DNA from: a virus
Direction: 5' to 3' (one strand)
Length of the DNA stretch: 64,000 nucleotides
Virus record (IMG/VR): IMGVR_UViG_3300038701_001713
The notes beneath the pieces are model-generated. The model saw only the letters and a list, made by a program, of their open reading frames with translations, had not been told where the DNA came from and made no database searches. The first letter of the stretch is position 1, and each line of letters opens with the position of its first letter. A program made the position numbers and the translations under genes. Positions 3,656-63,447 of this stretch are shown in pieces.

Positions 3656-3961
3656 CTATGAATACTTATGTATCTGTTCTTGCATCCACTTTTTATCAAA
3701 ATCAACCCCATAAGCCTCTAAGAAGTTATAATGGGTTGTTAAAAGGAATACGTAATACTCTGGTTTATCTCCGTACTCCTCATGCTGTTGCCTAGTAACC
3801 GCCATTAAGTTTTCTATCCTATCTTTGTTTTTAGAACCACCCATTCCTTTACAGAATATATGGTGTATATCTACGGCTGGGTCACCGTTTATTTCACTGG
3901 GAATGAAGTCAGAAGTATCATAACCCAGTGCTTCAAAGTAAATCTTAGTGTGATTTTTCAA
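3656..3961 (-). CDS. HNH-like nuclease
   Basis: DIHHI...GMGGS...IENLMAV...H pattern; TTG start. Confidence 0.55.
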   Translation of the reverse strand: MKNHTKIYFEALGYDTSDFIPSEINGDPAVDIHHIFCKGMGGSKNKDRIENLMAVTRQQHEEYGDKPEYYVFLLTTHYNFLEAYGVDFDKKWMQEQIHKYS

Positions 3962-4146
3962 ACTCTTATGCGAATAGCGTCATTGTTTATATAAGTACCG
4001 TATATTATATGGTTTTCAATAGGAAACCCATCACTAAGAAACCCATCACTAGAGGTGATTACTCTAGGTGACATATCTTTTTTAAAAGAACAGCTTAAAA
4101 CCCACGCATCATCTACTATAAAATCTTGTCTAAATCTAATTATCAT
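3958..4146 (-). CDS. YGVY-family microprotein A1 (62 aa)
   Basis: MIIRF...SPRV...HIIYGTYINNDAIRIRV*. Confidence 0.75.
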   Translation of the reverse strand: MIIRFRQDFIVDDAWVLSCSFKKDMSPRVITSSDGFLSDGFPIENHIIYGTYINNDAIRIRV

Positions 4147-4277
4147 ACTGATACGTTTATTTTTCGCTTCTGAATGTAAACTCCGTATGTATCAATAAGA
4201 TTGTTTTTTAATCTAGGGGTTAAATAACATGAATAATTATGCGTACCCCATAATGTGTCACTATATCTAAATATCAT
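4143..4277 (-). CDS. YGVY-family microprotein A2 (44 aa)
   Basis: Hand-translated MIFRYSDTLWGTHNYSCYLTPRLKNNLIDTYGVYIQKRKINVSV*. Confidence 0.75.
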   Translation of the reverse strand: MIFRYSDTLWGTHNYSCYLTPRLKNNLIDTYGVYIQKRKINVSV

Positions 4278-4438
4278 ATTCTTACACTTATTTTTAGTTT
4301 GTTAGGGTTTATATACACTCCGTACAAGTCGGTAATATCGCAATTAAACACCCTTCTATTGAATAATTTAGGGGTTAAAAAGGTAGAGATGGTTATCATC
4401 TGGTCGCTTCGTAATCCATACCTATATTTGAATATCAT
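4274..4438 (-). CDS. YGVY-family microprotein A3 (54 aa)
   Basis: Hand-translated MIFKYRYGLRSDQMITISTFLTPKLFNRRVFNCDITDLYGVYINPNKLKISVRI*. Confidence 0.75.
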   Translation of the reverse strand: MIFKYRYGLRSDQMITISTFLTPKLFNRRVFNCDITDLYGVYINPNKLKISVRI

Positions 4439-4560
4439 AACTTACTTTTTAAGTAATCCGCTAATTCTTCTAATTGAATTGGAGTAAATGAAAAATACAT
4501 TTGTCTAATGTTGTTTTTCTCTTCTTCGGTTATGTTAGCTTGGTCGATTAAGTCTTTCAT
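4435..4560 (-). CDS. small helical hypothetical protein (41 aa) inside the microprotein array
   Basis: MKDLIDQANITEEEKNNIRQMYFSFTPIQLEELADYLKSKL*; ATGA-coupled on both sides; not a YGVY member. Confidence 0.6.
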   Translation of the reverse strand: MKDLIDQANITEEEKNNIRQMYFSFTPIQLEELADYLKSKL

Positions 4561-4724
4561 ATTAATATACTTATTTCTCTTCCTACATAAACTCCATAAT
4601 TTTCATGGAAGTCAACTACATAAACTTGGGGATTGGTTCTGTTTTTTGTGGTAAAATCCCACACTCTATCCCCTAATACCCTACTTTTGGTTATCGCATT
4701 CCATCTTTGAAGTTTAAATATCAT
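4557..4724 (-). CDS. YGVY-family microprotein A4 (55 aa)
   Basis: MIFKLQRWNAITKSRVLGDRVWDFTTKNRTNPQVYVVDFHENYGVYVGREISILI*. Confidence 0.75.
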   Translation of the reverse strand: MIFKLQRWNAITKSRVLGDRVWDFTTKNRTNPQVYVVDFHENYGVYVGREISILI

Positions 4725-4882
4725 ACAACCACTAGTATTTTATTATCCCAATAACTACCTGTTCTTACATACACTCCAAAACATTGATTCTTACTAACTT
4801 TAGGTGTTAGTGCGTCTCTATGTAATCTAATCCAAACAGAGTGTTTGTTTATAACACTAAAATCTCTTATTTTGAATATCAT
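4721..4882 (-). CDS. YGVY-family microprotein A5 (53 aa)
   Basis: MIFKIRDF...LTPKVSKNQCFGVYVRTGSYWDNKILVVV*; internal start of track ORF 4721-4903. Confidence 0.75.
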   Translation of the reverse strand: MIFKIRDFSVINKHSVWIRLHRDALTPKVSKNQCFGVYVRTGSYWDNKILVVV

Positions 4883-5052
4883 ATTACTACTTGTATTGAA
4901 CATTTTATCACATATACACCGTAAGTAGATTGAACGAATGTGCTATCACTAATAACCTCACTTACCACTTTTGGTTTGGTTGAAGCAAAGATAGATACGA
5001 AAACTATGTCATCATCTACAAATATAAGACTGACCGTTCTTCGGAATATCAT
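4879..5052 (-). CDS. YGVY-family microprotein A6 (57 aa)
   Basis: MIFRRTVSLIFVDDDIVFVSIFASTKPKVVSEVISDSTFVQSTYGVYVIKCSIQVVI*. Confidence 0.75.
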   Translation of the reverse strand: MIFRRTVSLIFVDDDIVFVSIFASTKPKVVSEVISDSTFVQSTYGVYVIKCSIQVVI

Positions 5053-5411
5053 AACTCCATTAGTTTTTCAGCAGTCCACTTAACCATACTCCAAAACTTT
5101 TCATCTGCAACTATTTCTCTAGTTGGTCTAGGGTCTTTTTGAAGTAGTTCTTTGAAAGCTACTCCTTTAGTAACACCCCAGTTATCTGTTGATGATTGTT
5201 GGTCAATACGTTTTAATGTGGGTTTACCATTGTGTTCACCTTTTTCGTATTGTATTTCATTACCTACCTTTAAATAAGATGGAGGGTTTTTACTAGACAT
5301 TAATTGCCCAGCATACCCATCTTCCATTTCCACATCGAAAAAATAGACAATTCCTTTATTGCCTTTCCATTCTTTTCCCTCTGATATTGATTTTATTTTA
5401 CTTTTTGGCAT
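5049..5411 (-). CDS. hypothetical protein, possible OB-fold nucleic-acid-binding
   Basis: Beta-rich aromatic/basic N-terminal half (EWKGNKGIVYFFDVEMEDG). Confidence 0.35.
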   Translation of the reverse strand: MPKSKIKSISEGKEWKGNKGIVYFFDVEMEDGYAGQLMSSKNPPSYLKVGNEIQYEKGEHNGKPTLKRIDQQSSTDNWGVTKGVAFKELLQKDPRPTREIVADEKFWSMVKWTAEKLMEL

Positions 5412-5428
5412 TTGTTTGTTTTAAAGTT

Positions 5429-5454
5429 AAAAAGGCTGCACATCACATGCAGCC
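5429..5454 (-). terminator. rho-independent terminator
   Basis: GGCTGCA/TGCAGCC 7-bp stem followed by T run on minus strand. Confidence 0.7.
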
Positions 5455-5463
5455 TCTTATTAA

Positions 5464-5682
5464 TTAATCGAATGCTGCTTGCATGGCTCTCGTAACAGGG
5501 TTGTACTCCTGTTGGTTGCATTTACGCACATTGCCTTTTACAACAAATGCTCCATGCTCTCCATGTTTAACAACTCCTTTCTCTGTGGTAAATTGAAGGT
5601 CCGACCCTCTCTCCACCAATCCTTGAATGTCCCCCTCAACTGTGTGTGGGTGGGTACTAGGTTCTACTACTAGTGTTTTCAT
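5464..5682 (-). CDS. small His-motif protein, typical partner of DUF6745-like genes
   Basis: HPH...VKHGEHG...QQEYNP...FD pattern. Confidence 0.55.
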   Translation of the reverse strand: MKTLVVEPSTHPHTVEGDIQGLVERGSDLQFTTEKGVVKHGEHGAFVVKGNVRKCNQQEYNPVTRAMQAAFD

Positions 5683-5700
5683 AAATAAAACTGTTTTGAT

Positions 5701-6639
5701 TTAACTTTCAGCGACCAATAGGTCAAAATATTGTTCTTTAGTAAGAGGCACTTTATCTTGTCCCATTACTTCTTCGGAAACTTTACTCCCCTCATCGGTA
5801 AGTTCAAAGAAGAATATGTCTCCTTGTCTTTTTATTGCCGTTATGTGTGGTATTACTTCTTTTTCAATACGACATGTTGAAGCTACAGCGGCTAATGGGT
5901 CGTCCTTATACTCTTCTCCTTCTAACCATAACCAATGTTCTTCATCTGTTGTTGTACACCAGCACTTTAAAGCCCAAGCAATGTTTTCTCCGTCACCTAA
6001 AACATCACCTTCTACACCATCGACTAGTAGTTTGGTAATATCAACCTTATGTACTTCATACACAACATGTTTATCAATGGTTCCAATAAGGTTTCCTTCT
6101 GCGTCATATTGCTCACGGATTACTTTCTCCCCTGCTGTTTTATAACGTTCCGTTCCTAAAAAATCCATCATTTCACCTACATCCATCATTCCAGCAACAA
6201 TAGAGCGTATACGTGGATTGTCTATTTTCATCCACTCGGTGTAACTTAATTCGGTTTCATTTTCCCAATTGTCTAAAATTTCGTTAATAACTGGCTCGAA
6301 TACATATCGCAAATCAAGTCCTTTATCAATAGCATCGAACACTTCTTTGTGTATTCCTCCATTTTCGTACTCTTCATCTAAGTCAAAAGGAATGGTATCC
6401 CTGTTTACTTTAGCGTACAATTGCTCCAATCGGGCTCCTCTACCGACTTTTTCCATTCCTTCTGGGAATATGTCTGGGCCTTTACATGAAAATTGAAATG
6501 GCTCTTCGTTAAGCCATCTCTCAAATCGCTCTTTAACCCTAAAGTTGAGTTTAAGTATTTTAGCGTAATAAGGAGTGTTCCACTCTTTTGTTTCCGAGTT
6601 GTAAATCAACTGGAAATCTAAAAATCCTAGTTCAATCAT
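5701..6639 (-). CDS. DUF6745-like protein
   Basis: C-terminal IDNPRIRSIV...LKCWCTTTDEEHWLWL...PLAAVAST pattern; recognition only. Confidence 0.5.
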   Translation of the reverse strand: MIELGFLDFQLIYNSETKEWNTPYYAKILKLNFRVKERFERWLNEEPFQFSCKGPDIFPEGMEKVGRGARLEQLYAKVNRDTIPFDLDEEYENGGIHKEVFDAIDKGLDLRYVFEPVINEILDNWENETELSYTEWMKIDNPRIRSIVAGMMDVGEMMDFLGTERYKTAGEKVIREQYDAEGNLIGTIDKHVVYEVHKVDITKLLVDGVEGDVLGDGENIAWALKCWCTTTDEEHWLWLEGEEYKDDPLAAVASTCRIEKEVIPHITAIKRQGDIFFFELTDEGSKVSEEVMGQDKVPLTKEQYFDLLVAES

Positions 6640-6818
6640 AATACTGTTTGAATTTTGTTTGGTAAAATATATGTTCCGTAAACTGAATGTCTTGATAAAA
6701 ATGCTTTAGTTGGCGGCTTGTAGTGTGTGTTTTTTGAAAAAGCACAAATCGTAAGGTTGTCTACTACTGGAACATGCCATATAGGGTTGCCCCAGTGATC
6801 TAGTACTTGAAATATCAT
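6636..6818 (-). CDS. YGVY-family microprotein B1 (60 aa)
   Basis: MIFQV...KPPT...HSVYGTYILPNKIQTVL*. Confidence 0.75.
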   Translation of the reverse strand: MIFQVLDHWGNPIWHVPVVDNLTICAFSKNTHYKPPTKAFLSRHSVYGTYILPNKIQTVL

Positions 6819-6994
6819 ATAATTATGTTTATTTTGTTAACCCATACCCATTTACTAGACTTAATGTACACCCCGTAAGTAAAGTGTAAATCATGTACGG
6901 GCGCAACCAACGGAGGGGTTATGTAATCTGTGTAGGAATAATCCCGTACTCGATTAGGTCCCGTTAAGTGCCAGTCTTCTATTTTGAATATCAT
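6815..6994 (-). CDS. YGVY-family microprotein B2 (59 aa)
   Basis: MIFKIEDWHLTGPNRVRDYSYTDYITPPLVAPVHDLHFTYGVYIKSSKWVWVNKINIII*. Confidence 0.75.
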   Translation of the reverse strand: MIFKIEDWHLTGPNRVRDYSYTDYITPPLVAPVHDLHFTYGVYIKSSKWVWVNKINIII

Positions 6995-6998
6995 ACCG

Positions 6999-7030
6999 CT
7001 AAACTAAATATTAAATATCGTAATTCCAAA
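6999..7030 (-). promoter_or_regulatory. Bacteroidota sigma-A-type promoter (-33/-7), probably leaderless
   Basis: TTTG-N20-TAGTTTAG, 4 nt before ATG at 6994. Confidence 0.65.
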
Positions 7031-7052
7031 ACTTTTTTTGTAAATTTGTTAA

Positions 7053-7289
7053 ATGAAGTTATACAGTAGGAGATTTTTCAACAAACTAGAGGAATTAAGA
7101 AGTTTTGTGGAAGTAACATTCCATAAGTCGAACAATGGATACATGGTTATTCTGTTTTTTAAAGAAGAATACAGGAATGTAGATGTTTGGCACACTATGA
7201 AATGTAGGTTGTCCGAAACTAGATGGAAGGATTTGCACCAAGCTAGAAGGGATGTGTTCAGTCATTGGTTTAAAGAAGAGGTGGTTTAA
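7053..7289 (+). CDS. hypothetical protein, divergent
   Basis: 78 aa; TAAATTTG (7041-7048) 4 nt before ATG. Confidence 0.55.
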   Translation: MKLYSRRFFNKLEELRSFVEVTFHKSNNGYMVILFFKEEYRNVDVWHTMKCRLSETRWKDLHQARRDVFSHWFKEEVV

Positions 7290-9031
7290 AACGGTATATC
7301 GTCAGCGTCACCCCAGTTTCGTTTCTTAACAGCCCCGTAAGGCTGCCCATTGTCCACGAACCCCTCTTGGCTGCCATAATAATCAATGGTCTGTTGTTTT
7401 TCCCAAATGGGAATTGAGTTAGGCTGTAGTCCTTTTACGTAAAACCTACCATAATCAAAGTAATAAGTAAAACTTTTTTTAGGTTGACCTAAGTGTTCGT
7501 GCTTTATTTTGAGGGTGTGAAACTCGGTTGTTTTGGCATCATAGTCCCTATACACCCCAAATCCGTTGTGTATTTGTGCCTCGAAGTCATTGGAGCCTTT
7601 TATATCACCTAGGGTGGGCATTATTTCCCTCTGTTTGTCGTCTTTTCTAGTTTTGGTAGGATGGGCTATTAGTTTAATAGAACTCTCTGTGGATGTACAG
7701 AAATCAGCCATTTCACGCATCACCTCTTCTATGCGTTCTACTTTGTTGGAACCACCTATTTTAACTTTATTAAAAGCATCTATAAGGAATATATCTATGC
7801 CTTTACGTTTTCTTATTTCCTCCATTTTATTGAACATCCAGTCCCAATCAACCCCTTGTTTAGGCATTACCATATACAACCTGCCTTCCGCCCATTCTAA
7901 ATATTGCTTTAATTCTTCACGGGTAAACCTAAAGTTCTTGTCCAAGTAAGTCTTACCTATAGCTCTACCAGCCCATTTAGATTGATATAAACCAATAGGC
8001 ATGTGTTCAGGAGAGAATACCGCTAGTTTAAGGTCGTGTTCATTTATTAGATTCATTAAGTACCACTCTGTCCAATTTGACTTTCCGTGTCCAGCTATTC
8101 CAGTGGTAACATCAAAAGTACCTTTAGAATGGGTAAATATCTTGTCTAAGTGACTGAAATAAGGATTGTTCTCCATTTTATACAACGTGTCCTCTATTCC
8201 ATGGTCGTAAAAAGAGTATATGTCGTATTCTAAGTCTTTAATAGAGTATAACCCATCAACAGGATAACCTATTTTATTAGTCATTATCCTAAGCAACTCC
8301 TCTTTTCCTTCCTCTACGAGTACATCGTTAGCGTCTTTGTATTTACCAAAGTCAACCCGCCAACACTTACTTTTACCTAGTTTTTGGAGTATGTCGTTTT
8401 CCAACTCCCGACCTGCTTGGTCATTATCTACGGCAATTACAATACTATATACGTCTTTGAAGTATTTTTTACAGTTGTCGTACACGTCGTTGAAATCTTT
8501 GGCTCCATTAGGTACTGAAATAACGTTTTTTATACCAACTTCCCATAATGCTAGCTTGTCAAACTCACCTTCTACTATTATTGTTTCTTTTTCTATATGG
8601 TTTAATCCATAGAATATTTTCTTAGCATCTTTAAACTGGGCAAAACGCTTTTTACCATCTCTGTACTTCTTGTTGTAAAGAATAGTGCCTTCATAGTAAT
8701 TGAATACAATACAGTTTCTGTTGGCTCCAGCGATATAATGCTGTTCTTCCCCTACATAGTTTTCTAATAGAGTGTTTTCCGAAATACCTCTTGATTTGCA
8801 GTATTCTAAGAATTTAGGGGAGTGTTTTTCTTCCCATTTTTGGGGAGGTAGGGAGTATTTGAAGTCTCTAATAGCTACTTCACCGCAATGATGGCACTTT
8901 GCCACTCCATCATTCAAGTTAACGGAAAGTGAACGGTCTGATTTATTCTTTCTCTCGTGTGAACAAGCGGGACATTTGTATTTATGTTGCCCAGATTGGT
9001 GTTTTATACCTATTTCACTCCATTCTATCAT
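7286..9031 (-). CDS. bifunctional primase-helicase (T7 gp4/Twinkle-like)
   Basis: N-terminal CPAC...CHHC zinc-binding domain, TOPRIM (IIVEGEFD, AVDND, KDAND), SF4 helicase Walker A GIAGHGKS, IDAFN, LIAHP. Confidence 0.92.
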   Translation of the reverse strand: MIEWSEIGIKHQSGQHKYKCPACSHERKNKSDRSLSVNLNDGVAKCHHCGEVAIRDFKYSLPPQKWEEKHSPKFLEYCKSRGISENTLLENYVGEEQHYIAGANRNCIVFNYYEGTILYNKKYRDGKKRFAQFKDAKKIFYGLNHIEKETIIVEGEFDKLALWEVGIKNVISVPNGAKDFNDVYDNCKKYFKDVYSIVIAVDNDQAGRELENDILQKLGKSKCWRVDFGKYKDANDVLVEEGKEELLRIMTNKIGYPVDGLYSIKDLEYDIYSFYDHGIEDTLYKMENNPYFSHLDKIFTHSKGTFDVTTGIAGHGKSNWTEWYLMNLINEHDLKLAVFSPEHMPIGLYQSKWAGRAIGKTYLDKNFRFTREELKQYLEWAEGRLYMVMPKQGVDWDWMFNKMEEIRKRKGIDIFLIDAFNKVKIGGSNKVERIEEVMREMADFCTSTESSIKLIAHPTKTRKDDKQREIMPTLGDIKGSNDFEAQIHNGFGVYRDYDAKTTEFHTLKIKHEHLGQPKKSFTYYFDYGRFYVKGLQPNSIPIWEKQQTIDYYGSQEGFVDNGQPYGAVKKRNWGDADDIPF

Positions 9032-9207
9032 ACAATTACTGTTATTTTTTTAGACTCCATCCATTCATCAGCCTCAACGTAAACCCCGTAATTAGGGTGT
9101 ATATTATGTGCATTTGATGCGGTTAATTTAGGGGTTGTGTTATCTGCGTGGGAAAAACCCCATACTCGATTATGCGTTAAAATCCAGTTTTTTGTTTTGA
9201 ATATCAT
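9028..9207 (-). CDS. YGVY-family microprotein C (59 aa)
   Basis: MIFKTKNWILTHNRVWGFSHADNTTPKLTASNAHNIHPNYGVYVEADEWMESKKITVIV*. Confidence 0.78.
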   Translation of the reverse strand: MIFKTKNWILTHNRVWGFSHADNTTPKLTASNAHNIHPNYGVYVEADEWMESKKITVIV

Positions 9208-9725: not shown

Positions 9726-9749
9726 TTAATTTCTTTACCAGCGGTAATT

Positions 9750-10291: not shown

Positions 10292-10689
10292 TTTTCGTCT
10301 TGTTCGTATTTAATTTGGTTTGCCATTGCGTTTAATACTTCTTTGAGTCCATCGCACAACCACCTCAATTCCTTATACTCTGCGTGTATGTTAGCCTCTT
10401 CCTCTCTTTCTTGCTTTGTTTCGTTCTCTGCTATTATTTCTGCTTTACTTATAGTTGTTTCGTTAATTGCTTCTCTTTTTACTTTCCAGTATTTTTGTTT
10501 CCTAGCAGATTCAGCACGTATATACATAGCTTCCAATTGTCCAGTTAATGAAGCAAGTGAAGCGTAAAAAGAAGATAATTGTTGTTTTTGCCCTAATACA
10601 ATTCCTTTGTTTCCTTCGTTTTTGTATTTAGCCACTATATCAGCAGCCTGTTTTTTAATCGGAGCGAATCTTTCTAATAACTCTTTCAT
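10267..10689 (-). CDS. helical protein, possibly UvsY-like recombination mediator
   Basis: All-helical 140 aa next to SSB and resolvase. Confidence 0.35.
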   Translation of the reverse strand: MKELLERFAPIKKQAADIVAKYKNEGNKGIVLGQKQQLSSFYASLASLTGQLEAMYIRAESARKQKYWKVKREAINETTISKAEIIAENETKQEREEEANIHAEYKELRWLCDGLKEVLNAMANQIKYEQDEKWTSSQNL

Positions 10690-10841
10690 ACAACTACACT
10701 AATTTTAATAACAGCAACATAAACTCCGTAAGTGCTTTGGCTAATTTCATTATTACATGGAGTAATTTTAACAGCCTGCATAGAACTTAAAATAATCCAT
10801 CTCCCTATTGGCCACCTTACGTACTTGGATTTGTAAATCAT
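10686..10841 (-). CDS. YGVY-family microprotein D (51 aa)
   Basis: MIYKSKYVRWPIGRWIILSSMQAVKITPCNNEISQSTYGVYVAVIKISVVV*; TAACTTAG box (10846-10853) 4 nt upstream. Confidence 0.75.
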   Translation of the reverse strand: MIYKSKYVRWPIGRWIILSSMQAVKITPCNNEISQSTYGVYVAVIKISVVV

Positions 10842-10875
10842 GGCACTAAGTTAAACTAAATTTGGTTATTATACA

Positions 10876-11064
10876 ATGGAATATGGAGAAATATTGAAAA
10901 AAAGATTGGATGAGAGGTGTGTGTGTTATGCTAAACTCGCTAGGCACTTGGATATTACTCCCCAATATTTGAATTTTATATTTACTGGAAGTAGAAAACC
11001 TAGTTTAAAACTACACAATAAATTCAATGAGTTCGTTGTAGAGCCTATCCCATATTTTCATTGA
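10876..11064 (+). CDS. XRE/Cro-type HTH regulator
   Basis: YAKLARHLDITPQYLNFIFTGSRKPS helix-turn-helix; divergent from the replication operon. Confidence 0.75.
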   Translation: MEYGEILKKRLDERCVCYAKLARHLDITPQYLNFIFTGSRKPSLKLHNKFNEFVVEPIPYFH

Positions 11065-11290: not shown

Positions 11291-11322
11291 AAAAACCCCC
11301 TACGGTTCGCACGGTAGAGGGT
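11291..11322 (-). terminator. terminator shared with 53026-53057
   Basis: CCCTCTAC-CGT-GCGA-ACC-GTAGGGGG stem-loop plus T run; 30/32 identical to second copy. Confidence 0.75.
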
Positions 11323-11389
11323 TAGCTAAGAGTGCGGCTGGTGCGCTGTTCTCATGGGTAGCGTCCGCACTACTATTATCATTAAATAC

Positions 11390-11516
11390 ATTGGTGGGCA
11401 GGGGTCGAACCTGCAATGACAGAGCGGCTGTTCCTAATTCACGTTCAATTAGGATTTAGTTTACTGACTAACCTCATTTAAACGACCACCGTGTTTACCT
11501 GTTTCACCACCACCAA
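11390..11516 (-). ncRNA. tRNA-like RNA 1 (about 127 nt, non-canonical anticodon domain)
   Basis: Acceptor TTGGTGG/CCACCAA, class-II-like D arm TGGTGAAACAGGTAAACACG, T arm GCAGG-TTCGACC-CCTGC; roughly 57-nt insert in place of the anticodon loop; no encoded CCA. Confidence 0.7.
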
Positions 11517-11535
11517 TGTAAAAGAACTTTCAATA

Positions 11536-48484: not shown

Positions 48485-48785
48485 CCAACAGTTCTTTTAT
48501 CTTAGCGAACACTTTCACACCTTTTGGAGATAGTGAGTAAAGTGCGGGGATACCTTTGCTTCTAATATCCTTTCTCGCTTTATATATAAGCTTCTGTTGT
48601 TCTAACGAATTAACTGCTCTTCTAGTTTCAGAAATGGTTTTAAAATGTAAACTATCATGTATTCTTTCCGTGCTTAAACACAGACCGATAGCTGAATTGA
48701 TAGCTCCTATGTGAATTAATATAACACCTTCCGATATTGGTAAGTCTACTTCTTTTAAAGCTTTTGGAAGGTATTGTATTGTCAT
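48453..48785 (-). CDS. winged-helix (MarR-like) DNA-binding protein
   Basis: TRRAVNSLEQQKLIYK...YSLSPKG wing pattern. Confidence 0.55.
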   Translation of the reverse strand: MTIQYLPKALKEVDLPISEGVILIHIGAINSAIGLCLSTERIHDSLHFKTISETRRAVNSLEQQKLIYKARKDIRSKGIPALYSLSPKGVKVFAKIKELLDGYEVEGTAI

Positions 48786-49456
48786 AATATTTGATATATA
48801 TCTTTTCGGTTCATTGCAAACAACTTCTCTCCGAATGTATTAAATATTTCGTATTCTAATGTTATGTTCGCTGTTGCGTTAAATCTTACCTTATCGCCTA
48901 CTTTTAACTCTTCTTTGTCTTTGTATCCGTAGTCCCTATATTCTACACAGCTACCTAAATATCTTACAATTCCTTTTGTTGGGCTTTCTTTAACCATTTC
49001 GATTATGTTTCCGCCTAGGTTTTCGGGGGTTGGTTCTATTAATATTTTGCCATTAAGCGGGATGATTTTTTCTCCACGCTTTGCTACGTATAACTCATCG
49101 TATTTGATAAAGCAGTTATCTTCGTATTCTTTTCTTTGCTCATAACCCATCCATGAGAAATAAACATCGTCACCTACTTGTAGTTCTTGGTTGGTTTTAA
49201 ACCCTAAGCAAAGTGAGTTAAGTCTACCTAGTTCCATTTGCATGGATTGGTCTCTTGAGTTTCTACTACTGTATTTTAGTTTGTTTCTTAGTTCTTTGAC
49301 TTTATCTCCATACCAAATAAGTTTGTCGGGTACAGCAACTACAGTACCGTGTCTTGGATAAGTTTTGTTAGCTTGGTCCAAGTTAAGGTGTATGCTTCCA
49401 GCTTTTGTATTGGTTTCTGCTGGTTTAATTAAAACGTAGTTGTTTATTAACTTCAT
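48782..49456 (-). CDS. tandem two-domain GroES-like co-chaperonin
   Basis: NYVLIKP...HGTVVAVP...LQVGDDVYF and GKILIEP...KGIVRYLG...LKVGDKVRF. Confidence 0.7.
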   Translation of the reverse strand: MKLINNYVLIKPAETNTKAGSIHLNLDQANKTYPRHGTVVAVPDKLIWYGDKVKELRNKLKYSSRNSRDQSMQMELGRLNSLCLGFKTNQELQVGDDVYFSWMGYEQRKEYEDNCFIKYDELYVAKRGEKIIPLNGKILIEPTPENLGGNIIEMVKESPTKGIVRYLGSCVEYRDYGYKDKEELKVGDKVRFNATANITLEYEIFNTFGEKLFAMNRKDIYQIL

Positions 49457-49611
49457 AATACTACTTGTATTTTAATATTATTAACATAAACCCCGTAAGT
49501 TTTATGTTTCATACTTAATTCTTTAGAATTAGTGTGATGTGTAAATAAATCATCCGAAACTTCTTCTCCAATCCAAATTGGATACCCCCCATAATAAGCC
49601 CTGTAAATCAT
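49453..49611 (-). CDS. YGVY-family microprotein E1 (52 aa)
   Basis: MIYRAYYGGYPIWIGEEVSDDLFTHHTNSKELSMKHKTYGVYVNNIKIQVVL*. Confidence 0.75.
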   Translation of the reverse strand: MIYRAYYGGYPIWIGEEVSDDLFTHHTNSKELSMKHKTYGVYVNNIKIQVVL

Positions 49612-49790
49612 AATATGATTTGAATTTTCTTTGGAGCAATGTATGTACCGTAGAAATAATGAGTATAAGAAAAACGCGTATCGGACACTCTTGGATTTAC
49701 CGCCCCATTAAAGTTAAAATTATAAACAGTACACAAATAATCTTCAATTATATTCGGTCTTATTGGTTGGCGTTTACTAACAAATATCAT
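49608..49790 (-). CDS. YGVY-family microprotein E2 (60 aa)
   Basis: MIFVSK...VNPRVSDTRFSYTHYFYGTYIAPKKIQIIL*. Confidence 0.75.
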   Translation of the reverse strand: MIFVSKRQPIRPNIIEDYLCTVYNFNFNGAVNPRVSDTRFSYTHYFYGTYIAPKKIQIIL

Positions 49791-49945
49791 ATAACTATAC
49801 AAATTTTAACATTGTTAACATAAACACCATAAGTACTGTGTTTATTGCTTATCTCTTTGGAGCTAGTACGGTTTGTATATAAATAATCTGAAACATCATA
49901 ATCCATAAAAATTGGGTAGTAATCATATAATGCTCTGTAAATCAT
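49787..49945 (-). CDS. YGVY-family microprotein E3 (52 aa)
   Basis: MIYRALYDYYPIFMDYDVSDYLYTNRTSSKEISNKHSTYGVYVNNVKICIVI*. Confidence 0.75.
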   Translation of the reverse strand: MIYRALYDYYPIFMDYDVSDYLYTNRTSSKEISNKHSTYGVYVNNVKICIVI

Positions 49946-50184
49946 AATACGGCTATAATGTTTTCTTGTGGAACGCAAGTATATGTATTTCCGTTTTCAA
50001 TGTAAGATTGGAATGCACTGCTTCCATATATCACTTTGTCGCCCTCACTAACAGTGCATCCCTCTCCTACATCAATCACCAATCCAAACTTCTCTGATTT
50101 CCTATACGCCTCTGGGATTATGATGCTTCCAAAATTTTCTTTACTTACTATTTGAATAGTTATATGTCCAGCCGTTGTTTTCAT
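49942..50184 (-). CDS. groES: GroES co-chaperonin
   Basis: GSIIIPE...GLVIDVGEG..VSEGDKVIY...ENIIAVL. Confidence 0.8.
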   Translation of the reverse strand: MKTTAGHITIQIVSKENFGSIIIPEAYRKSEKFGLVIDVGEGCTVSEGDKVIYGSSAFQSYIENGNTYTCVPQENIIAVL

Positions 50185-53025: not shown

Positions 53026-53057
53026 AAAAACCCCCTACGGCTCGCGCGGTAGAGGGT
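53026..53057 (-). terminator. terminator shared with 11291-11322
   Basis: Same hairpin with a compensatory pair change next to the GCGA loop. Confidence 0.75.
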
Positions 53058-53270
53058 AATACGTCAGCGATATCGCTGACTAAACAACTTATTTCTAAGT
53101 CGCGCCCCGCTCCACCTACATCAAAATCTTCTTGGGTTCGGTGGTTGCAGGGTTAAAGGTTAGGTCGCAACCAAGTTTATAAGTAGAGACAGGGGTTTCG
53201 CCTGCATTTGGATTTATTTAAGCTAGCTTCCACGTCCTAGTATATTAGACGACTCTATTAGGTTGCGACC
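53058..53270 (-). ncRNA. structured non-coding segment downstream of tRNA-like RNA 2
   Basis: 10-bp GGTCGCAACC/GGTTGCGACC stem (53163-53270) enclosing further hairpins; palindrome 53063-53080; no ORF. Confidence 0.5.
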
Positions 53271-53285
53271 ATTATCATTAAATAC

Positions 53286-53449
53286 ATTGGTGGGCAGGAT
53301 TCGATACCTGCAAACTGGAATAAGCTCCGTTTCCAAATCAGCTTTAGCTATTCACTAATCTTTGTGTCTCCCAGTATTTAGCATGTTTAGCGATACTTAT
53401 CGAACTGATATAGGTTCAAGACCGTCCAGAACGCTTCCGCCACCACCAA
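53286..53449 (-). ncRNA. tRNA-like RNA 2 (about 164 nt)
   Basis: Same acceptor TTGGTGG/CCACCAA and T stem GCAGG/CCTGC as RNA 1, unrelated longer interior; promoter TTTG-N20-TAGTTTTA at 53470-53501. Confidence 0.65.
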
Positions 53450-53552
53450 TGTAAAAGAACTTTCAATTGTAAAACTACAAATTATTTTCTATAGTTCCAA
53501 ATGTTTTTTACTTTATAGTGAGTTAATATTTCCGTATATTTGTTGTACTAGT

Positions 53553-54035: not shown

Positions 54036-54316
54036 TATTTCTCTTTGGATTTAAAAAGCTGTTGCATAGACTCGACTATCCTTTCAACAGAATAAGCTTG
54101 TACCTCCTGATTATCTTTATCTATAGATATATTACATAAAGAGTTTAGCCTCCAAGAAGGCGATTATATACATGTTTACACTAAAAATTTCCGACTTTTT
54201 ATTAACGCTGAACAAAATGAAGTTAGAATAACAAAGACTACAGAATGAACGTTATCCACAACAAATTAGTTTTTTAATTAAGTAGAAATGCCTACGTCAA
54301 TAAATACATTTGAACA

Positions 54317-55541: not shown

Positions 55542-56009
55542 TATAAGGAAATTCCATTAAGTATGTCCTTTTTAGTGTAAACATGTATATAATCGCCTCC
55601 AAGAAATATGCACTGCTTCATGTATAGCTGTTGAAATACTCTTATCGTAAAGTATGCAAACAACCCTTATTTCTTTTAATTCACCACAAGCATTCACTTC
55701 ACAAACAGTAGGCCGACCATCAAGTAGTTCTTCTACATAGTAATCACTACTGGCTCCATACAGCTTATTGAATACACTTGCTGTTTCTTTTATATCTTTG
55801 TAGTTTATTTGCCATATATCAACTATAAACTCTGTAGGAAGTAACTGGTGTTCTATTTTTTTAATCATTTACTACTAAAGTACTAATAACTATTTACAAT
55901 TACAACTTTCTTGAAAAAGAAACTATTGTGTTGTTTCTTTAGAAACCTATACCAGTATATCTGTCCACGCATAACTTTTTTTTTAATTAACAAAGTTAGT
56001 TTAATAATT

Positions 56010-56594: not shown

Positions 56595-56612
56595 CAAAGT
56601 AAAATTATAAAC

Positions 56613-57125: not shown

Positions 57126-57134
57126 CTTACTAAC

Positions 57135-57320
57135 ATGAAAACAATATACGCATTACAAAACAATAAAGTTGTTCCTCTAATAAAATTCACTAAAACAGGC
57201 AGCGGAGTTTGCGTTTCTCATTTCGATTACGGCAAACAAAAACACATTGCATATATGGACAACTTACAGTTCAAAGAATTTGCAAACGTTATTAACGATA
57301 TTAAAACTTCTATACAGTAA
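57135..57320 (+). CDS. small hypothetical protein
   Basis: 61 aa. Confidence 0.5.
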   Translation: MKTIYALQNNKVVPLIKFTKTGSGVCVSHFDYGKQKHIAYMDNLQFKEFANVINDIKTSIQ

Positions 57321-57544
57321 TGGAGTTAGTAAAATCAATAACTCAAACGTCCAACACAATTGAATTTTTAACTGATGGTGAAAAACTTATTATTGAAGGC
57401 TATGGAAGATGGGATTTTTCCTACGCAGATTTAACAACCCATCCGTTGTTTGCATCAAACACACGTAATAGACACCTTACTTACGGAGTATATATTCAGT
57501 CTGGTAAAGGGGTACGGGTTAAAAAAATAAACGTAATAGTATGA
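57320..57544 (+). CDS. YGVY-family microprotein F1 with non-family N-terminus (74 aa)
   Basis: ...WDFSYAD...ASNTRNRHLTYGVYIQSGKGVRVKKINVIV*. Confidence 0.75.
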   Translation: MELVKSITQTSNTIEFLTDGEKLIIEGYGRWDFSYADLTTHPLFASNTRNRHLTYGVYIQSGKGVRVKKINVIV

Positions 57545-57702
57545 TATTTAAGTTTGTAAGGCCAATTAATTATGCTTATCGTGTAAAAAGAGATTTGTTT
57601 AACAAAGGTTTAAACCCTAGAGTTTCAAAACCAGAAATACGTAGTTGGCACAACACTTACGGAACTTACGTAAGCATAAATAAAATAACAGTTGCAATAT
57701 GA
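57541..57702 (+). CDS. YGVY-family microprotein F2 (53 aa)
   Basis: MIFKFVRPINYAYRVKRDLFNKGLNPRVSKPEIRSWHNTYGTYVSINKITVAI*. Confidence 0.75.
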   Translation: MIFKFVRPINYAYRVKRDLFNKGLNPRVSKPEIRSWHNTYGTYVSINKITVAI

Positions 57703-59122: not shown

Positions 59123-60008
59123 ATTTTAAAAAAAGCTTTTTAAAAAGATGTGTTGGATTTAGTGTTGGAGTAGATATACTTGATAATAATTATTGGGTTA
59201 AAATATATTATATTCAAAAAATATTTGGAATAGGTTTTAAAAAAACACTTAAGATAAGTTATTTTTATGCAAACGGCACTAAAAGCGGATATATAAAACC
59301 AACGGAAGAAATGATTAATGATGTGACATATCTTAGAGAATACTTTAATGAAAATTAACTATAAAGAAATAATACAGTCTACTAATTGCTGGCGGCTTCA
59401 AAAAGATATGGAGCGTGGAGAAAAAGGACAATTAGCTATTGCTTACAAAGGCGGCAAACCAGTTAAGGCGGCAACGAAAAAATGTTTGTTCGATGGGAAG
59501 TGTGGTAAGTATCAACCATGTATGTTACAGTCTCCAGAACAACAAGTGTTTGGCCCAGACATAGAAGAAATTCATGTTTACGGCAAATCTCCGTTAGACA
59601 GTTTAAGGGAATTAGGAGCAGGTGCCAGTAGTAAACTATTTTTAAAAACCATAGATGAGTTACCTGAATAAATACTTACACGAAATGCAATCAGAAATAC
59701 CTAATATAAACCCAGAAGGAAGTCTTAAAGAACTTCAATTCATATGTGAAGTAAGGGTCAAGTCGCTTAAACAATTGTATTATAAGACGATACAGTTAAG
59801 GAATGATACTTATAACAAAGATATTTCTTACACCTATTTAGAGAGATTAGCTGATAAATTAACGGCAAAATCCAAAGAGGGTAAGCAGTTAAGGGAGGAG
59901 ATTACGAGGTTGTTAAAGGAAATACTATATGGTGTGGGTGGATGTGATGAAAAAGAGAATAGTAATATATGCGAAGATAAAACGGAAAGTGCCGAAACAA
60001 ACGAATAG
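59119..60008 (+). other. three hypothetical ORFs (59119-59358, 59348-59671, 59655-60008)
   Basis: Overlapping co-directional ORFs. Confidence 0.5.
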
Positions 60009-60094
60009 GTTAAATTCGGACAAAAAAATAATAAGCCTTGAATTTTTTAAATGGGGTGTCAAATACGTAGACCCCGAAACTAAAACAATATATT

Positions 60095-60664
60095 TTGAAA
60101 TACCTTAGTATAGATATTGAAACGACAGGGGTTGACCCGCTAAACGACCAAATACTCTCTGTGGGTGCAATTGTAGAAGATACAAGTATTAAGTCTGATT
60201 TTAAAGATTTACCTAAAATACACTTAATATTAAAGCACGATAGGATTAACGGCAACCCTTATGCTATTCAAATGAACAATAGTATAATTAGATATATAAG
60301 CGGAAAAGAAAAACCACCATCCTTAGATGATGAGAAGTTTGGTTATACCGAAACAATAGACCCTAGTTTATTAGAGAGTTATTTAATACATTTCATTCAG
60401 TCACACATGGGTAATAAGAAAGTTGTGGCTGCTGGTAAAAACTTTGGGTCTTTTGATTTTCAGTTTTTGAAACAACATGGCTCTTTAGGTCTTTTTTTCG
60501 CACATAGATCTATAGACCCAGCTATGATGTATATTGACTGGAATGAAGATTACCCACCCAACCTTGAAACGTGTAAAGAGAAAGCGGGTTTACCCAAATT
60601 AGTTTCACACAACGCATTAGAGGATGCTTGGGATGTGATACAGTGTTTACGTAAATTTTACTAA
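60095..60664 (+). CDS. DEDDh 3'-5' exonuclease
   Basis: SIDIETTG, AGKNFGSFD, HNALEDA. Confidence 0.85.
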   Translation: MKYLSIDIETTGVDPLNDQILSVGAIVEDTSIKSDFKDLPKIHLILKHDRINGNPYAIQMNNSIIRYISGKEKPPSLDDEKFGYTETIDPSLLESYLIHFIQSHMGNKKVVAAGKNFGSFDFQFLKQHGSLGLFFAHRSIDPAMMYIDWNEDYPPNLETCKEKAGLPKLVSHNALEDAWDVIQCLRKFY

Positions 60665-61603
60665 ATGATACAGTGGCAGAATTATAAGGATTTTATTCAG
60701 AAGAGGGCCACTATAGGTCAGAGTTCTTCCGAAATATTGAACGCATTAAAAGAAACGTTTCCCGATGTTAAATGGAATTCATCGTCCGACAGGCATGTAA
60801 GACATATAGTTTATAAAATGAAAGAAGCGGGGGATATAGTGAATAAATCAGTAAATCTGCCAAGAGTACTTTTGTTTGACATAGAAACCGCTGCAATGTT
60901 GTTGAGGGGTTGGGATAAATGGAACCCCCCTATTAGCGTTGTAAAGGATTGGTATATTATATGCTGGTCCGCTAAGTGGATGTGGGAAACTAGAACGTAT
61001 AATGCTTGCGTAACTCCAGAAGAGGCTATAAACAGAGATGATGAGAGAGTTGTTAAAGCTTTATGGGGTCTGCTTAACGAGGCTGATGTGGTTATAGCAC
61101 ATAATGGAGATAAATTCGATATTAAAAAAGTAAACTCAAGGTTCTTCTTTCATAGGTTAGGTCCAACAAACCCATTTCAATCTATAGATACATTGAAGGC
61201 AACCAAAAAAGTGATGAAGAACTCATCCAATAGGCTGGATGACCTTTTGAAAATGCTTAACAAAGAAGGTAAGTATGAAACCCCTAGAGGTTTGTGGGAA
61301 GGATGCGAGGAGGGAGACCCAGAATCTTTGAAAATTATGCAGCATTATTGTGATGAAGATATAAGGGGCCTTGAAGATTACTATTTAGAATTAAGACCAT
61401 GGATAAAACCCCATCCTAACATTGGATTAATGATGGGTCAAGAAGAGGGTTGTGCTTATTGTGGTGAAGATGATGGGTTTACCCCTGCTGGATATGTTAA
61501 TACCTATGTAAGTACATTCGAAGTACATAAGTGTAATAATTGTGGCGGTCTGAACAAGACTAGGAAATCAATGAAAGATAAAAATAGCTTGAGAAGCTTA
61601 TGA
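60665..61603 (+). CDS. DnaQ/RNase H-superfamily exonuclease with C-terminal Zn ribbon
   Basis: LFDIET, AHNGDKFD, SIDTL, YCDEDI, CAYCG...CNNCG. Confidence 0.8.
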   Translation: MIQWQNYKDFIQKRATIGQSSSEILNALKETFPDVKWNSSSDRHVRHIVYKMKEAGDIVNKSVNLPRVLLFDIETAAMLLRGWDKWNPPISVVKDWYIICWSAKWMWETRTYNACVTPEEAINRDDERVVKALWGLLNEADVVIAHNGDKFDIKKVNSRFFFHRLGPTNPFQSIDTLKATKKVMKNSSNRLDDLLKMLNKEGKYETPRGLWEGCEEGDPESLKIMQHYCDEDIRGLEDYYLELRPWIKPHPNIGLMMGQEEGCAYCGEDDGFTPAGYVNTYVSTFEVHKCNNCGGLNKTRKSMKDKNSLRSL

Positions 61604-61854
61604 TGATTTTATATAATTTTAGCATGTTTATTGGAGGGGTGTTGTTTTTGTTATATGTTAACCTTTGGAAGAATAAAAAGAGTTTATCTCCAGAACATTA
61701 CTATTACTCTTCAAATTTTTTAAAATATCCCAAATACTCTTTATCTATAAGTATTTTTTTAGGTCCACTGTATTGTTTGGGGATTATTTGCTTAATGATT
61801 AAAGAACGAAAAGACTTTTCATGGAAACATGTAGATTCTTGGGATAAAAAGTAG
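61600..61854 (+). CDS. small membrane protein
   Basis: Two hydrophobic segments. Confidence 0.45.
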   Translation: MMILYNFSMFIGGVLFLLYVNLWKNKKSLSPEHYYYSSNFLKYPKYSLSISIFLGPLYCLGIICLMIKERKDFSWKHVDSWDKK

Positions 61855-61899
61855 TAAATTCTTTTTGATTTGCCAATAGGTTTTATTACTTTAGCCTAT

Positions 61900-62637
61900 A
61901 TGGGAAAAATAACAGAGAGGCTAACAAGCCATTATCATAAAGCTATAAAGTATGCGACTACTTGTTGTAAAGATGAAGAATTGGCTGTTGAGTTAGTGCA
62001 AGATGCTTATTTATCTTTAACTGTTGCCGAGAATAATGGGAGTATTAAAGAACATAATAATCAGTACGGTGTTTTTACTGCGGTTAAATATGCTTGGTAT
62101 TCTTATTTGAGGAACATTAACACAGTTGGAAGGAGTAAAGAAAGTAAGGAGAAATGGTTGTTTGAAAACCACACTTCTGATAAAAAAATAACTACTGTTA
62201 AAGAGGGTGAGGAAAAAAACTCATTTAAAATGAGGCGTTTTCCCATGGCGTATATAATGCCAAAAGAGGAGTTGTCTGATGAGTATGAGGTTGCTTTGAG
62301 TAAACTTTCCGCTAATGAAAAGAAAGCTATCCAATTACATATGGATGGATATAACGGTAGGGAGATTTCAGAACATTTACCAGTAGGTTTAAGGGCTGGT
62401 CAACAAACTTTATTAAGAGCAAAAGAGAAACTTGCTAAAGAATTAGGATATATCGACAAGCCAATAAAAGCCAATAATTCCTCAAAAATTATTAAAGCAT
62501 ACAGAGGTGAACAGGAGATAGTAATGGCTGGCAACAAAGAAATGATTAAACACGGGTTTACACCCCAAGCAGTTAATTTAGTTTTAAAAGGAAAAAGAAA
62601 CCACCACAAAGGATGGAAATTTAAGTATGATATTTAG
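61900..62637 (+). CDS. ECF-like sigma factor with C-terminal NUMOD1-like DNA-binding domain
   Basis: Region-2-like AVELVQDAYL; region-4-like LSKLSANEKKAIQLHMDGYNGREISE...LLRAKEKL; tail AVNLVLKGKRNHHKGWKFKY; promoter TTTG-N19-TACTTTAG upstream. Confidence 0.7.
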   Translation: MGKITERLTSHYHKAIKYATTCCKDEELAVELVQDAYLSLTVAENNGSIKEHNNQYGVFTAVKYAWYSYLRNINTVGRSKESKEKWLFENHTSDKKITTVKEGEEKNSFKMRRFPMAYIMPKEELSDEYEVALSKLSANEKKAIQLHMDGYNGREISEHLPVGLRAGQQTLLRAKEKLAKELGYIDKPIKANNSSKIIKAYRGEQEIVMAGNKEMIKHGFTPQAVNLVLKGKRNHHKGWKFKYDI

Positions 62638-62788
62638 GCACATATACTTCATAGACTCAAACAAAGAACAGCACGTTATTCATAAACCAAGTATATACCG
62701 TGGGCCATTTAATGTTTTGTATGGGGTGTATTTAGTTTCTAGCTCTATGAATAATACTCACAACGATAAAATACATGTACACGTATGA
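62627..62788 (+). CDS. YGVY-family microprotein G1 (53 aa)
   Basis: MIFRHIYFIDSNKEQHVIHKPSIYRGPFNVLYGVYLVSSSMNNTHNDKIHVHV*. Confidence 0.75.
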   Translation: MIFRHIYFIDSNKEQHVIHKPSIYRGPFNVLYGVYLVSSSMNNTHNDKIHVHV

Positions 62789-62937
62789 TATTTAAAGCTG
62801 GAAAGTATGGTAAATTAATGAGTGACAAAACATTTTACAATACACACCCTCACGTATACAACTCTAACGATTTATGGGAGGGCCACGATGTGTATGGAGT
62901 GTATTTGGGGAGGTGGGGAATAAACATAAGAGTATGA
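62785..62937 (+). CDS. YGVY-family microprotein G2 (50 aa)
   Basis: MIFKAGKYGKLMSDKTFYNTHPHVYNSNDLWEGHDVYGVYLGRWGINIRV*. Confidence 0.75.
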   Translation: MIFKAGKYGKLMSDKTFYNTHPHVYNSNDLWEGHDVYGVYLGRWGINIRV

Positions 62938-63104
62938 TATTTATAAATAAAAGAAGTCCGCATATTCATTTGTGGAAAAGTCGTGTTGATTCAATTATGT
63001 ACGCCCATGCAGGCCACCCTATTCTGTGTGAGGGTCATGATTTGAGTTATACACATATAAACTACGGTGTTTACACAGGAGAGAAAATAGAAATATTGAT
63101 ATGA
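62934..63104 (+). CDS. YGVY-family microprotein G3 (56 aa)
   Basis: MIFINK...GHPIL...THINYGVYTGEKIEILI*. Confidence 0.75.
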   Translation: MIFINKRSPHIHLWKSRVDSIMYAHAGHPILCEGHDLSYTHINYGVYTGEKIEILI

Positions 63105-63292
63105 TATTTAGATTAAAAGAATGGTCAATGATAACAGATGATGGTGAAGTTTGGGATTACTGTTACGCAAATAACACAACCCCTAAACTAACCGCATCAA
63201 ATACACGTAATATACACTCTACTTACGGGGTTTACATTGAAGGCAACAAACTAAAAGATTTCTATAATGACAAAATTACTGTGTTAATATGA
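63101..63292 (+). CDS. YGVY-family microprotein G4 (63 aa)
   Basis: MIFRLKEW...TTPKLTASNTRNIHSTYGVYIEG...DKITVLI*. Confidence 0.78.
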   Translation: MIFRLKEWSMITDDGEVWDYCYANNTTPKLTASNTRNIHSTYGVYIEGNKLKDFYNDKITVLI

Positions 63293-63447
63293 TATTTAAG
63301 AATACATACAGTCCTTTAAATCAATTAGATCCTCCAGTAAGGAGAATTGGTTTTAACTTAGGTTTTCTACCCACTTTTAACAACCAGCTATATACAAGAT
63401 ATTACGGAGTGCATGTTACTAAAGATAGTATAAGCGTAGTAATATGA
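63289..63447 (+). CDS. YGVY-family microprotein G5 (52 aa)
   Basis: MIFKNTYSPLNQLDPPVRRIGFNLGFLPTFNNQLYTRYYGVHVTKDSISVVI*. Confidence 0.72.
   Translation: MIFKNTYSPLNQLDPPVRRIGFNLGFLPTFNNQLYTRYYGVHVTKDSISVVI

Follow-up and report, generated by a model that had tools for sequence, protein, structure and literature searches.

The virus record IMGVR_UViG_3300038701_001713 is considered here over a stretch of 64,000 nucleotides (nt), termed the window, which forms part of a contig of 75,028 bp. The window contains 20 small open reading frames (ORFs) of 44–74 amino acids (aa), here named m1 to m20 in order of position, which lie at seven loci and all run in the direction of their neighbours. ORF listing and direct extraction returned exactly the coordinates and strands that an earlier, sequence-only reading of this DNA had given for them. 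The ORFs share a pattern that consists of an M-I-[F/Y] start, a proline, the motif H-x-x-YG[V/T]Y and a C-terminal K-I-x-V-x-V strand, and a profile built from them separates them cleanly from all other frames of the window. Together they occupy ~3.4 kb, or 4–5% of the genome, and make up about one-fifth of the phage's called genes. On the evidence of the sequence, these appear to be 20 genuine protein-coding genes of one family. We propose, with a probability of about one-half, that they are translated paralogues of a lineage-specific, β-rich family and provide a novel podophage with a repertoire of binding modules.

Genes at the seven loci

Six members lie in tandem on the minus strand: m1 (3958..4146; 62 aa), m2 (4143..4277; 44 aa, the shortest member), m3 (4274..4438; 54 aa), m4 (4557..4724; 55 aa), m5 (4721..4882; 53 aa from its MIF start) and m6 (4879..5052; 57 aa). 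The first of these begins with MII, carries YGTY, ends in IRIRV and scores E 1e-16 against the family profile described below. Between m3 and m4, and within the same chain of ATGA overlaps, lies a non-member ORF of 41 aa (4435..4560, minus strand) that is acidic and helical-looking and matches neither the family profile nor Pfam. The array is followed directly by an ORF of 101 aa with an HNH motif (3656–3961, minus strand; no Pfam match at E 0.01), whose TTG start overlaps the stop of m1. Still on the minus strand, m8 (6815..6994; 59 aa) is followed by m7 (6636..6818; 60 aa; YGTY), whose stop overlaps the start of a 312-aa gene; m9 (9028..9207; 59 aa) overlaps by its stop the start of the primase-helicase gene, and m10 (10686..10841; 51 aa) stands alone.

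The remaining minus-strand members are m11 (49453..49611; 52 aa), m12 (49608..49790; 60 aa from its MIF start; YGTY) and m13 (49787..49945; 52 aa from its MIY start). They are flanked, just upstream of the terminase gene, by two Cpn10/GroES-like genes of the same strand: m13 follows the first (49942–50184; 80 aa), and the stop of m11 overlaps the start of the second (48782–49456; 224 aa, including an N-terminal extension of ~130 residues). Two distant relatives of the phage (L018 and L019) have a single Cpn10-like gene of ~190–215 aa at the same site ahead of TerL.

On the plus strand, m14 (57320..57544; 74 aa) has an N-terminal extension in place of the MIF start and is followed by m15 (57541..57702; 53 aa; YGTY; pI 10.5). 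The last array is made up of m16 (62627..62788; 53 aa), which is the weakest member with a profile E-value of 1e-8, m17 (62785..62937; 50 aa), m18 (62934..63104; 56 aa from its MIF start), m19 (63101..63292; 63 aa) and m20 (63289..63447; 52 aa; YGVH). It lies behind a sigma-factor-like gene (61870–62637, plus strand) that matches Sigma70 region 4 and a PHROG sigma factor and has a C-terminal helix-turn-helix tail resembling NUMOD/I-HmuI. Long forms of the family are represented by m8, m9, m14 and m19.

Four of the 20 have longer alternative ORFs, reaching for example to 4903 in m5 and starting from 62874 in m18; the ATG starts at 4882 (m5), 49790 (m12), 49945 (m13) and 62934 (m18) were chosen because they fit the family and the ATGA overlap with the upstream stop. 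Fifteen of the ORFs are shorter than 60 aa when read from their MIF starts, so that the usual cut-offs for small ORFs can conceal the most numerous gene family of a phage.

Members are joined to their neighbours in a characteristic way. The stop codon lies in an ATGA overlap in 19 of the 20 genes, as the sequence-only reading had noted along with their shared direction, and in m1 the corresponding overlap is TTGA, the next gene starting at TTG. At the other end, the start of 16 members falls within an ATGA overlap; of the other four, m8 and m10 lack a gene upstream, m14 overlaps its neighbour by 1 nt and m16 begins 11 nt inside the sigma-like gene. Overlaps of 4 nt between stop and start are found at 23 of 28 family junctions as against 13 of 68 other junctions, and the ATGA overlap is also the general style of gene junction in this phage. 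The operons concerned are those of replication (m1–m10), the head of the packaging operon (m11–m13), the vicinity of nucleotide-metabolism genes (m14 and m15) and the genes behind the sigma-like factor (m16–m20).

As the first genes of their operons, m8 and m10 each follow a promoter-like box on the minus strand, TTTG-N20-TAGTTTAG-N4-ATG at 6999–7030 for m8 and ATTG-N20-TAACTTAG-N4-ATG at 10845–10880 for m10. The pattern common to the two is TTTG/ATTG-N20-TA(G/A)(T/C)TTAG with the ATG 4 nt further on, and a third match to it lies ahead of the sigma-like gene, at 61864–61894. Two matches to the box pattern in the window are not above chance, the expected number being 0.9. The spacing suggests that the m8 and m10 transcripts may be leaderless and begin with a family member.

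The genes of the window are those of a phage, namely a primase-helicase, a DNA polymerase exonuclease subunit, the sigma-like factor, a P22-type portal and TerL, together with the two Cpn10-like genes, a DUF3127 protein and an M43 peptidase; the family is phage-encoded. The source is a novel podophage, whose host is probably a member of the Flavobacteriia. It is a deep-branching singleton: the nearest TerL sequences are 28–29% identical to its own and the nearest cultured relatives stand at ~25%, and most of its structural ORFs, including proteins of 1970 and 1613 aa, have no Pfam match. Distant relatives share the gene order Cpn10, a 95-aa ORF, TerL, a P22-like portal and an SU10-type major capsid protein, and one of them (L019) encodes a giant crAss MUZ-like protein. 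The sequence-only reading called the family genome-wide, which holds for the window and for 4.4 kb of the contig upstream of it, where no further copy was found; ~6.6 kb of the contig fall outside this scope.

A repeat scan of the window located perfect 30-nt inverted repeats at 54158–54187 and 55569–55598, 1381 nt apart. The intergenic regions 11291–11534 and 53026–53467 have three blocks of 32–37 nt in common that are 92–94% identical. ARAGORN predicted no tRNA in the window, and no Rfam family was matched there.

Conservation, coding evidence and divergence

When the 20 peptides are aligned, M1, I2 and the glycine of YGVY are invariant, and the flanking tyrosines and the isoleucine of K-I are nearly so. 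The start M-I-[F/Y/I] is present in 19 members, m14 having instead an N-terminal extension of ~20 residues, and YG[V/T]Y is present in 18, with FGVY in m5 and YGVH in m20; these counts are the ones reported earlier. The proline is found in 15 of the 20 and a histidine three residues ahead of the tyrosine in 13, while the last strand is preceded by K in 15 and by I in 19. With regard to a possible identity as ribosome-arrest or regulatory leader peptides, conservation is highest over the last ~15 residues and each stop is overlapped by a start; on the other side, YGVY and the K-I strand lie at spacings that vary by 3–12 residues, and the ORFs form runs of up to six.

Membership was examined by comparing the profile of the 20 with every stop-to-stop frame of 25 aa or more, 1197 in all. 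The 20 members are matched at E-values from 3e-24 to 1e-8, and the best of the other 1177 frames has an E-value of 0.38; because of this gap, the earlier list neither missed a copy nor included a false one. In leave-one-out profiles, 19 of the 20 are recovered at E ≤ 8e-4, each as the top match outside the training set, and m16 is marginal (E 0.34, rank 20). Sixteen of the copies had been called independently as genes in public protein collections.

At the motif positions it is the amino acid and not the codon that has been kept. The first tyrosine of YGVY is encoded by TAC in 15 copies and TAT in 4, the glycine by GGA (10), GGT (5) or GGG (5), the valine by GTT (8), GTG (6) or GTA (2) and the second tyrosine by TAT (12) or TAC (7); the proline is encoded by CCT (10), CCA (3) or CCC (2), the histidine by CAT (6) or CAC (7), and the codons for F are likewise mixed. 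By the method of Nei and Gojobori, applied to all 190 pairs, the proportions of synonymous (pS) and non-synonymous (pN) differences are 0.65 and 0.17 in the motif columns, and 0.69 and 0.62 in the variable columns. The motif positions are under purifying selection at the level of the peptide, and synonymous sites are saturated. In the variable columns pN/pS is 0.90 over all pairs and 1.10 in the closest subgroup (m8, m9, m14 and m19), so that the remaining positions are either nearly unconstrained or diversifying, two states that these figures do not separate. Codon mixes, pS and pN, profile separation and leave-one-out recovery all bear out the claim of the sequence-only reading that selection acts on the peptide and not on a DNA repeat.

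The frames themselves give further evidence of coding. Log-odds of codon usage, trained on the long genes of the phage, are above zero in the annotated frame of every member and exceed those of the other frames. By our own estimate, stops arise at ~7% per random codon at 36% GC, and a frame of ~55 codons stays open by chance with a probability of ~0.02 per ORF; twenty frames of that length that remain open with a synonymous divergence (dS) above 1 are in themselves strong evidence that the ORFs are read.

The copies have diverged far from one another. Median pairwise identity is 34% at the amino acid level and 49% at the nucleotide level, with a nucleotide maximum of 72%; the most similar genes are m11 and m13 (62% aa), followed by m9 and m19 (53% aa, 70% nt). 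Adjacent members of an array resemble each other no more than distant copies do (0.350 against 0.347). No two copies agree exactly over more than 17 nt. Recent amplification is thereby excluded, and the same two limits, ≤72% nucleotide identity and exact runs of ≤17 nt, dispose of long gene-conversion tracts. The genes m9 and m19, on opposite strands and separated by 54 kb, share a central block of 93 nt with 85% identity, which suggests an old partial exchange.

The term hypervariable, applied to the family by the sequence-only reading, was not borne out. Between two runs, which come from two studies of 'algae metagenome' samples and cover the phage ~1500x and ~6x, its sequence shows no difference (100% identity). 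Given the greater of these depths, the culture sampled probably contains the phage together with its flavobacterial host. In this contig-level comparison with public reads, two apparent variant positions arise from cross-mapping of the paralogue m19 and the phage itself has no variant positions. Targets of a diversity-generating retroelement (DGR) were also considered and rejected: the window has no DGR-type pair of template and variable repeats, which would span ~100 nt or more and differ at adenines, its sole long similar block being that of the two coding copies m9 and m19, and none of the ten largest unassigned ORFs has a reverse transcriptase domain. Miniature inverted-repeat transposable elements and mycobacteriophage MPME-type elements do not fit either, given identities of no more than 72%, the lack of terminal inverted repeats and borders marked only by the 4-nt ATGA. 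The 20 copies are old, highly diverged paralogues rather than hypervariable ones.

Predicted fold and searches for homologues

Relative to the other genes of the phage, the family is enriched in His (2.5x) and in Ile, Tyr, Val and Trp (1.5–1.7x) and depleted in Glu, Ala, Gln and Leu (0.33–0.72x, with Glu at 0.33x and Ala at 0.43x); Ser and Thr do not depart from the genome average, and Cys amounts to 1.0%. The pI is at least 8 in 14 of the 20. The grand average of hydropathy (GRAVY) ranges from −0.49 to 0.9 with a median near 0, and no member has a hydrophobic stretch that could span a membrane as a helix. By composition the peptides appear to be β-type and mostly basic, and they are predicted to be cytoplasmic proteins of 5–8 kDa. 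Hydrophobic peptides of the type I toxin kind were rejected as an identity in view of the near-zero median GRAVY, the depletion of helix formers and the enrichment of β formers.

AlphaFold2 models were made for m9 and m15 with the 20 paralogues as the alignment. Strands are predicted at residues 2–5, 41–45 and 54–58 of m9 and at residues 2–4, 41–45 and 48–52 of m15, which correspond in both to the N-terminal end, the YGVY motif and the C-terminal K-I-x-V-x-V. In the m15 model the YGVY strand and the C-terminal strand form a tight hairpin. A scaffold of three β-strands would fit the data and is weakly supported by these models.

Searches with the individual members in Pfam-A, PHROGs v4, NCBIfam, PADLOC and the PDB sequences gave no match below ~0.005, and no family of these libraries was matched by more than one of the 20. 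The profile, run against 5.8 billion protein clusters and 1.84 billion representatives, returned nothing beyond the 16 called copies of the contig and one WD40 protein of 1398 aa (E 4e-5 summed over five repeats). Identity with a WD40 or β-propeller blade was rejected, with an hhalign probability of 2% and no Pfam WD40 match for any member. An origin from the neighbouring Cpn10/GroES-like genes was likewise rejected (hhalign probability 0.1% to both). A feature search of the ESM Atlas reached a best score of 0.79, which is below the threshold for a lead.

No homologue outside the contig was found in IMG/VR, in JGI metagenomes or in GTDB genomes. The primase-helicase, used as a query, had no relative in IMG/VR. 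The family profile did not match five related cultured Flavobacteriia phages (phi38:1, phi46:3, Gundel_1, elemoE and a Manatee Spring podovirus), and metagenomic contigs that carry the nearest primase-helicases (46% identity) or TerLs (28–29%) contained no family member. A degenerate DNA pattern, which matches six of the 20 copies in the window, gave no match in IMG/VR, five in JGI metagenomes and one in GTDB; all were forced by the pattern. Three of them (L016, L017 and L021) were read back and proved to be the antisense strand of a haemolysin-III (PAQR) motif that is conserved; this peptide is also encoded by two more (L014 and L015), and one (L013) has only the forced motif. The PAQR antisense reads Q-Y-G-V-Y-V-P-A-I-K-I-K-I followed by a stop and is a trap for motif searches on the YGVY family.

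A single lead came from m19, of which the part at 63101–63232 can be aligned for 45 residues, at 44% identity, with a stretch inside a DUF859 (PF05895) protein from the tail region of a Streptococcus thermophilus siphophage (L023:4731-6161). The two have the same order of motifs (M-x-F-R, W, W-x-D-Y, T-P-K, aromatic-G-V), and there is a match to phrog_16877 at E 0.054. Membership in DUF859 is an unconfirmed lead: the tblastn E-value is 0.7, only one of the 20 members matches, Pfam DUF859 gives none at E ≤ 10 and the hhalign probability is 13%.

The sequence family is new, without a homologue anywhere searched, and the sequence-only reading, which had recognized no named family, agrees with the empty results from curated libraries and from the profile search beyond the contig. 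Since the phage is a deep singleton, the absence of the family elsewhere is in part that of an unsampled lineage. A full-text search of the literature for comparable families of phage paralogues returned nothing relevant.

Interpretation and comparison with known systems

In the reading that we prefer, each copy would be made by termination and reinitiation together with its neighbours, which are replication genes, genes adjoining the sigma factor or those that open the packaging operon. Every copy would fold as a small sheet composed of an N-terminal strand and a C-terminal hairpin (the YGVY strand, a turn and the K-I-x-V-x-V strand), on which the variable middle and the turn would form the exposed surface. 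The set would then constitute binding modules of different specificities directed at host or phage macromolecules, with nucleic acid as a possible ligand of the basic members. Growth of the family would have proceeded by old duplications and occasional partial exchange, as in m9 and m19, and not by mutagenic hypervariation. We infer that the most likely role of such modules lies in host takeover or counter-defence. Factors of this kind are barely known in Bacteroidota phages, for which a family of diversified binders would be a source of new takeover or anti-defence activities as well as a compact natural scaffold library. The phage spends 4–5% of its genome on one unrecognized family of microproteins, a considerable cost for a capsid-limited virus.

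Several points weigh against this reading. The public listings consulted contained no RNA run; the evidence comes from a single metagenomic genome, and with the family in one genome only, conservation is measurable among paralogues. A pN/pS of ~1 in the variable part fits relaxed constraint as well as it fits diversifying selection. The mean codon score of the family is 0.22 compared with 0.38 for other genes, and the lysine codon of K-I is AAA in 15 of 15 cases compared with 70% genome-wide, which hints at an additional constraint at the nucleotide level near the downstream start. The genomic context implicates no partner, target or defence gene. The AlphaFold2 models are of low confidence, with a predicted local distance difference test score (pLDDT) of 64 and a predicted template modelling score (pTM) of 0.45 for m9 and a pLDDT of 53 for m15, and the better model found no fold match with Foldseek against the PDB or in an exhaustive search with VIA-align (best Z 2.1). 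The β-sheet scaffold of the sequence-only reading is weakly supported, by composition and by the strands at three expected sites, and falls short in model confidence and fold match.

A more specific proposal, which we regard as possible but unlikely, is that the repertoire is hard-wired: one minimal three-strand scaffold would be present 20 times with different surfaces, and the copies would serve either as combinatorial inhibitors that act on many host defence or takeover targets simultaneously or as parts of a hetero-oligomeric ring. This would amount to a new family of protein folds and, for a small phage, to a strategy not seen before, and in the case of the ring to a natural fold built from separately encoded peptides the size of a blade. 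Co-assembly may also be considered in its own right, with the tandem sets of six, five, three and two pairing their strands to form the subunits of hetero-oligomeric β rings or layers. Tandem, co-translated arrays would couple the subunits stoichiometrically, the conserved N- and C-termini resemble edge strands, low-confidence models of monomers are expected if folding needs partners, and the sole multi-stretch database match of the profile is, without being significant, the strand pattern of a WD40 propeller. Single copies (m9 and m10) and pairs, in different operons and on both strands, are hard to reconcile with such assemblies, as are the inconsistent sizes of the arrays and the hhalign probability of 2% to WD40, and we consider co-assembly rather improbable; were it correct, the family would bear on the origin of repeat folds from single units.

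We are equally sceptical of the view that the ORFs are cis-acting translation devices, which load ribosomes and pass them on by reinitiation at ATGA in a manner suited to a host without Shine–Dalgarno initiation, the peptide being of minor importance. The excess of 4-nt overlaps at family junctions is what it would predict; m8 and m10 come first behind the TTTG/ATTG-N20-TAnnTTAG-N4-ATG box, with the ATG 4 nt past the −7 box and possibly leaderless; and the 5′ end is nearly constant (ATGAT[A/T]T), with an A-rich AAAAT[A/T] ~13–18 nt ahead of the next start that includes the invariable AAA codon. An ORF that merely delivers ribosomes has no need of YG[V/T]Y, His and Pro, which are kept as amino acids while their codons change freely, and runs of five or six ORFs add nothing to delivery; the distance between YGVY and the C-terminal strand, which varies by 3–12 residues, would in addition speak against an arrest motif with fixed tunnel geometry. 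If ribosome hand-over were nonetheless the main function, it would represent a translation strategy for hosts without Shine–Dalgarno initiation. That the units are selfish mini-cassettes, inserting at ATGA junctions perhaps with the aid of nearby HNH-type nucleases and of no benefit to the phage, is very unlikely. A mobile element would be expected to spread, and no copies occur in any other genome searched; nor are there near-identical copies (at most 72% nt identity and a longest exact run of 17 nt), terminal inverted repeats or longer target duplications, and specific residues are under purifying selection. What recommends the idea is that a unit bounded on both sides by ATGA can be inserted while sparing both neighbours, that copies lie on both strands, that an HNH-like gene directly follows the six-copy array and that the tail of the sigma-like gene, ahead of the five-copy array, resembles NUMOD. 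Chance ORFs or a degenerate DNA repeat, as might be suspected from the shortness of the ORFs and their lack of homologues elsewhere, are effectively excluded by the profile E-values, the leave-one-out test, amino acid conservation at saturated synonymous sites, the best frame in 20 of 20 cases and the openness of the frames.

Among known systems, the small early inhibitors of phages (T7 Gp2, Gp0.4 and Ocr, the host-takeover module of SPO1, and anti-CRISPR and other anti-defence proteins) are encoded by single-copy, mutually unrelated genes and bind a host protein. The family resembles them in that its proteins are tiny and fast-evolving orphans of early or middle operons, and differs in its 20 paralogues, and no sequence or profile similarity to them was found; we know of no other case of 20 paralogues of one fold in one phage. 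The internal protein (IP) loci of T4-type phages, whose genes sit together, encode proteins with a capsid-targeting sequence of ~10 residues that is cut by the prohead protease. They too are clustered phage genes with a short fixed N-terminal peptide and a highly divergent body, whereas the present family has only four fixed N-terminal residues, a C-terminus that is also conserved and copies spread across replication, regulatory and packaging operons. Precursors of ribosomally synthesized and post-translationally modified peptides (RiPPs) of the prochlorosin type, which have a long conserved leader, a variable core rich in Cys, Ser and Thr and a modifying enzyme, provide a parallel in the tens of small paralogous ORFs per genome and in the combination of fixed and variable segments. 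A RiPP identity was rejected, as both ends and the internal YGVY are conserved here, Cys stands at 1.0% and the neighbours scanned encode no modifying-enzyme domain.

A close comparison is with the multigene families (MGFs) and gene-accordion expansions of large eukaryotic viruses, in which expansion of this kind is well known. MGF100, MGF110 and MGF360 of African swine fever virus (ASFV) and the amplification of poxvirus K3L concern eukaryotic double-stranded DNA viruses and larger proteins with homologues across strains. Like these, the phage family consists of many diverged paralogues of an accessory gene within one viral genome, partly in tandem, and such families are thought to diversify the interaction with the host. 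It is set apart by the 75-kb genome that carries it, by products of only 44–74 aa that account for about one-fifth of the called genes, by the lack of any homologue found and by the absence of signs of recent amplification. To our knowledge, the expansion of a viral multigene family has not been described for microproteins in a phage of this size; the present case shows such expansion in a new and extreme form.

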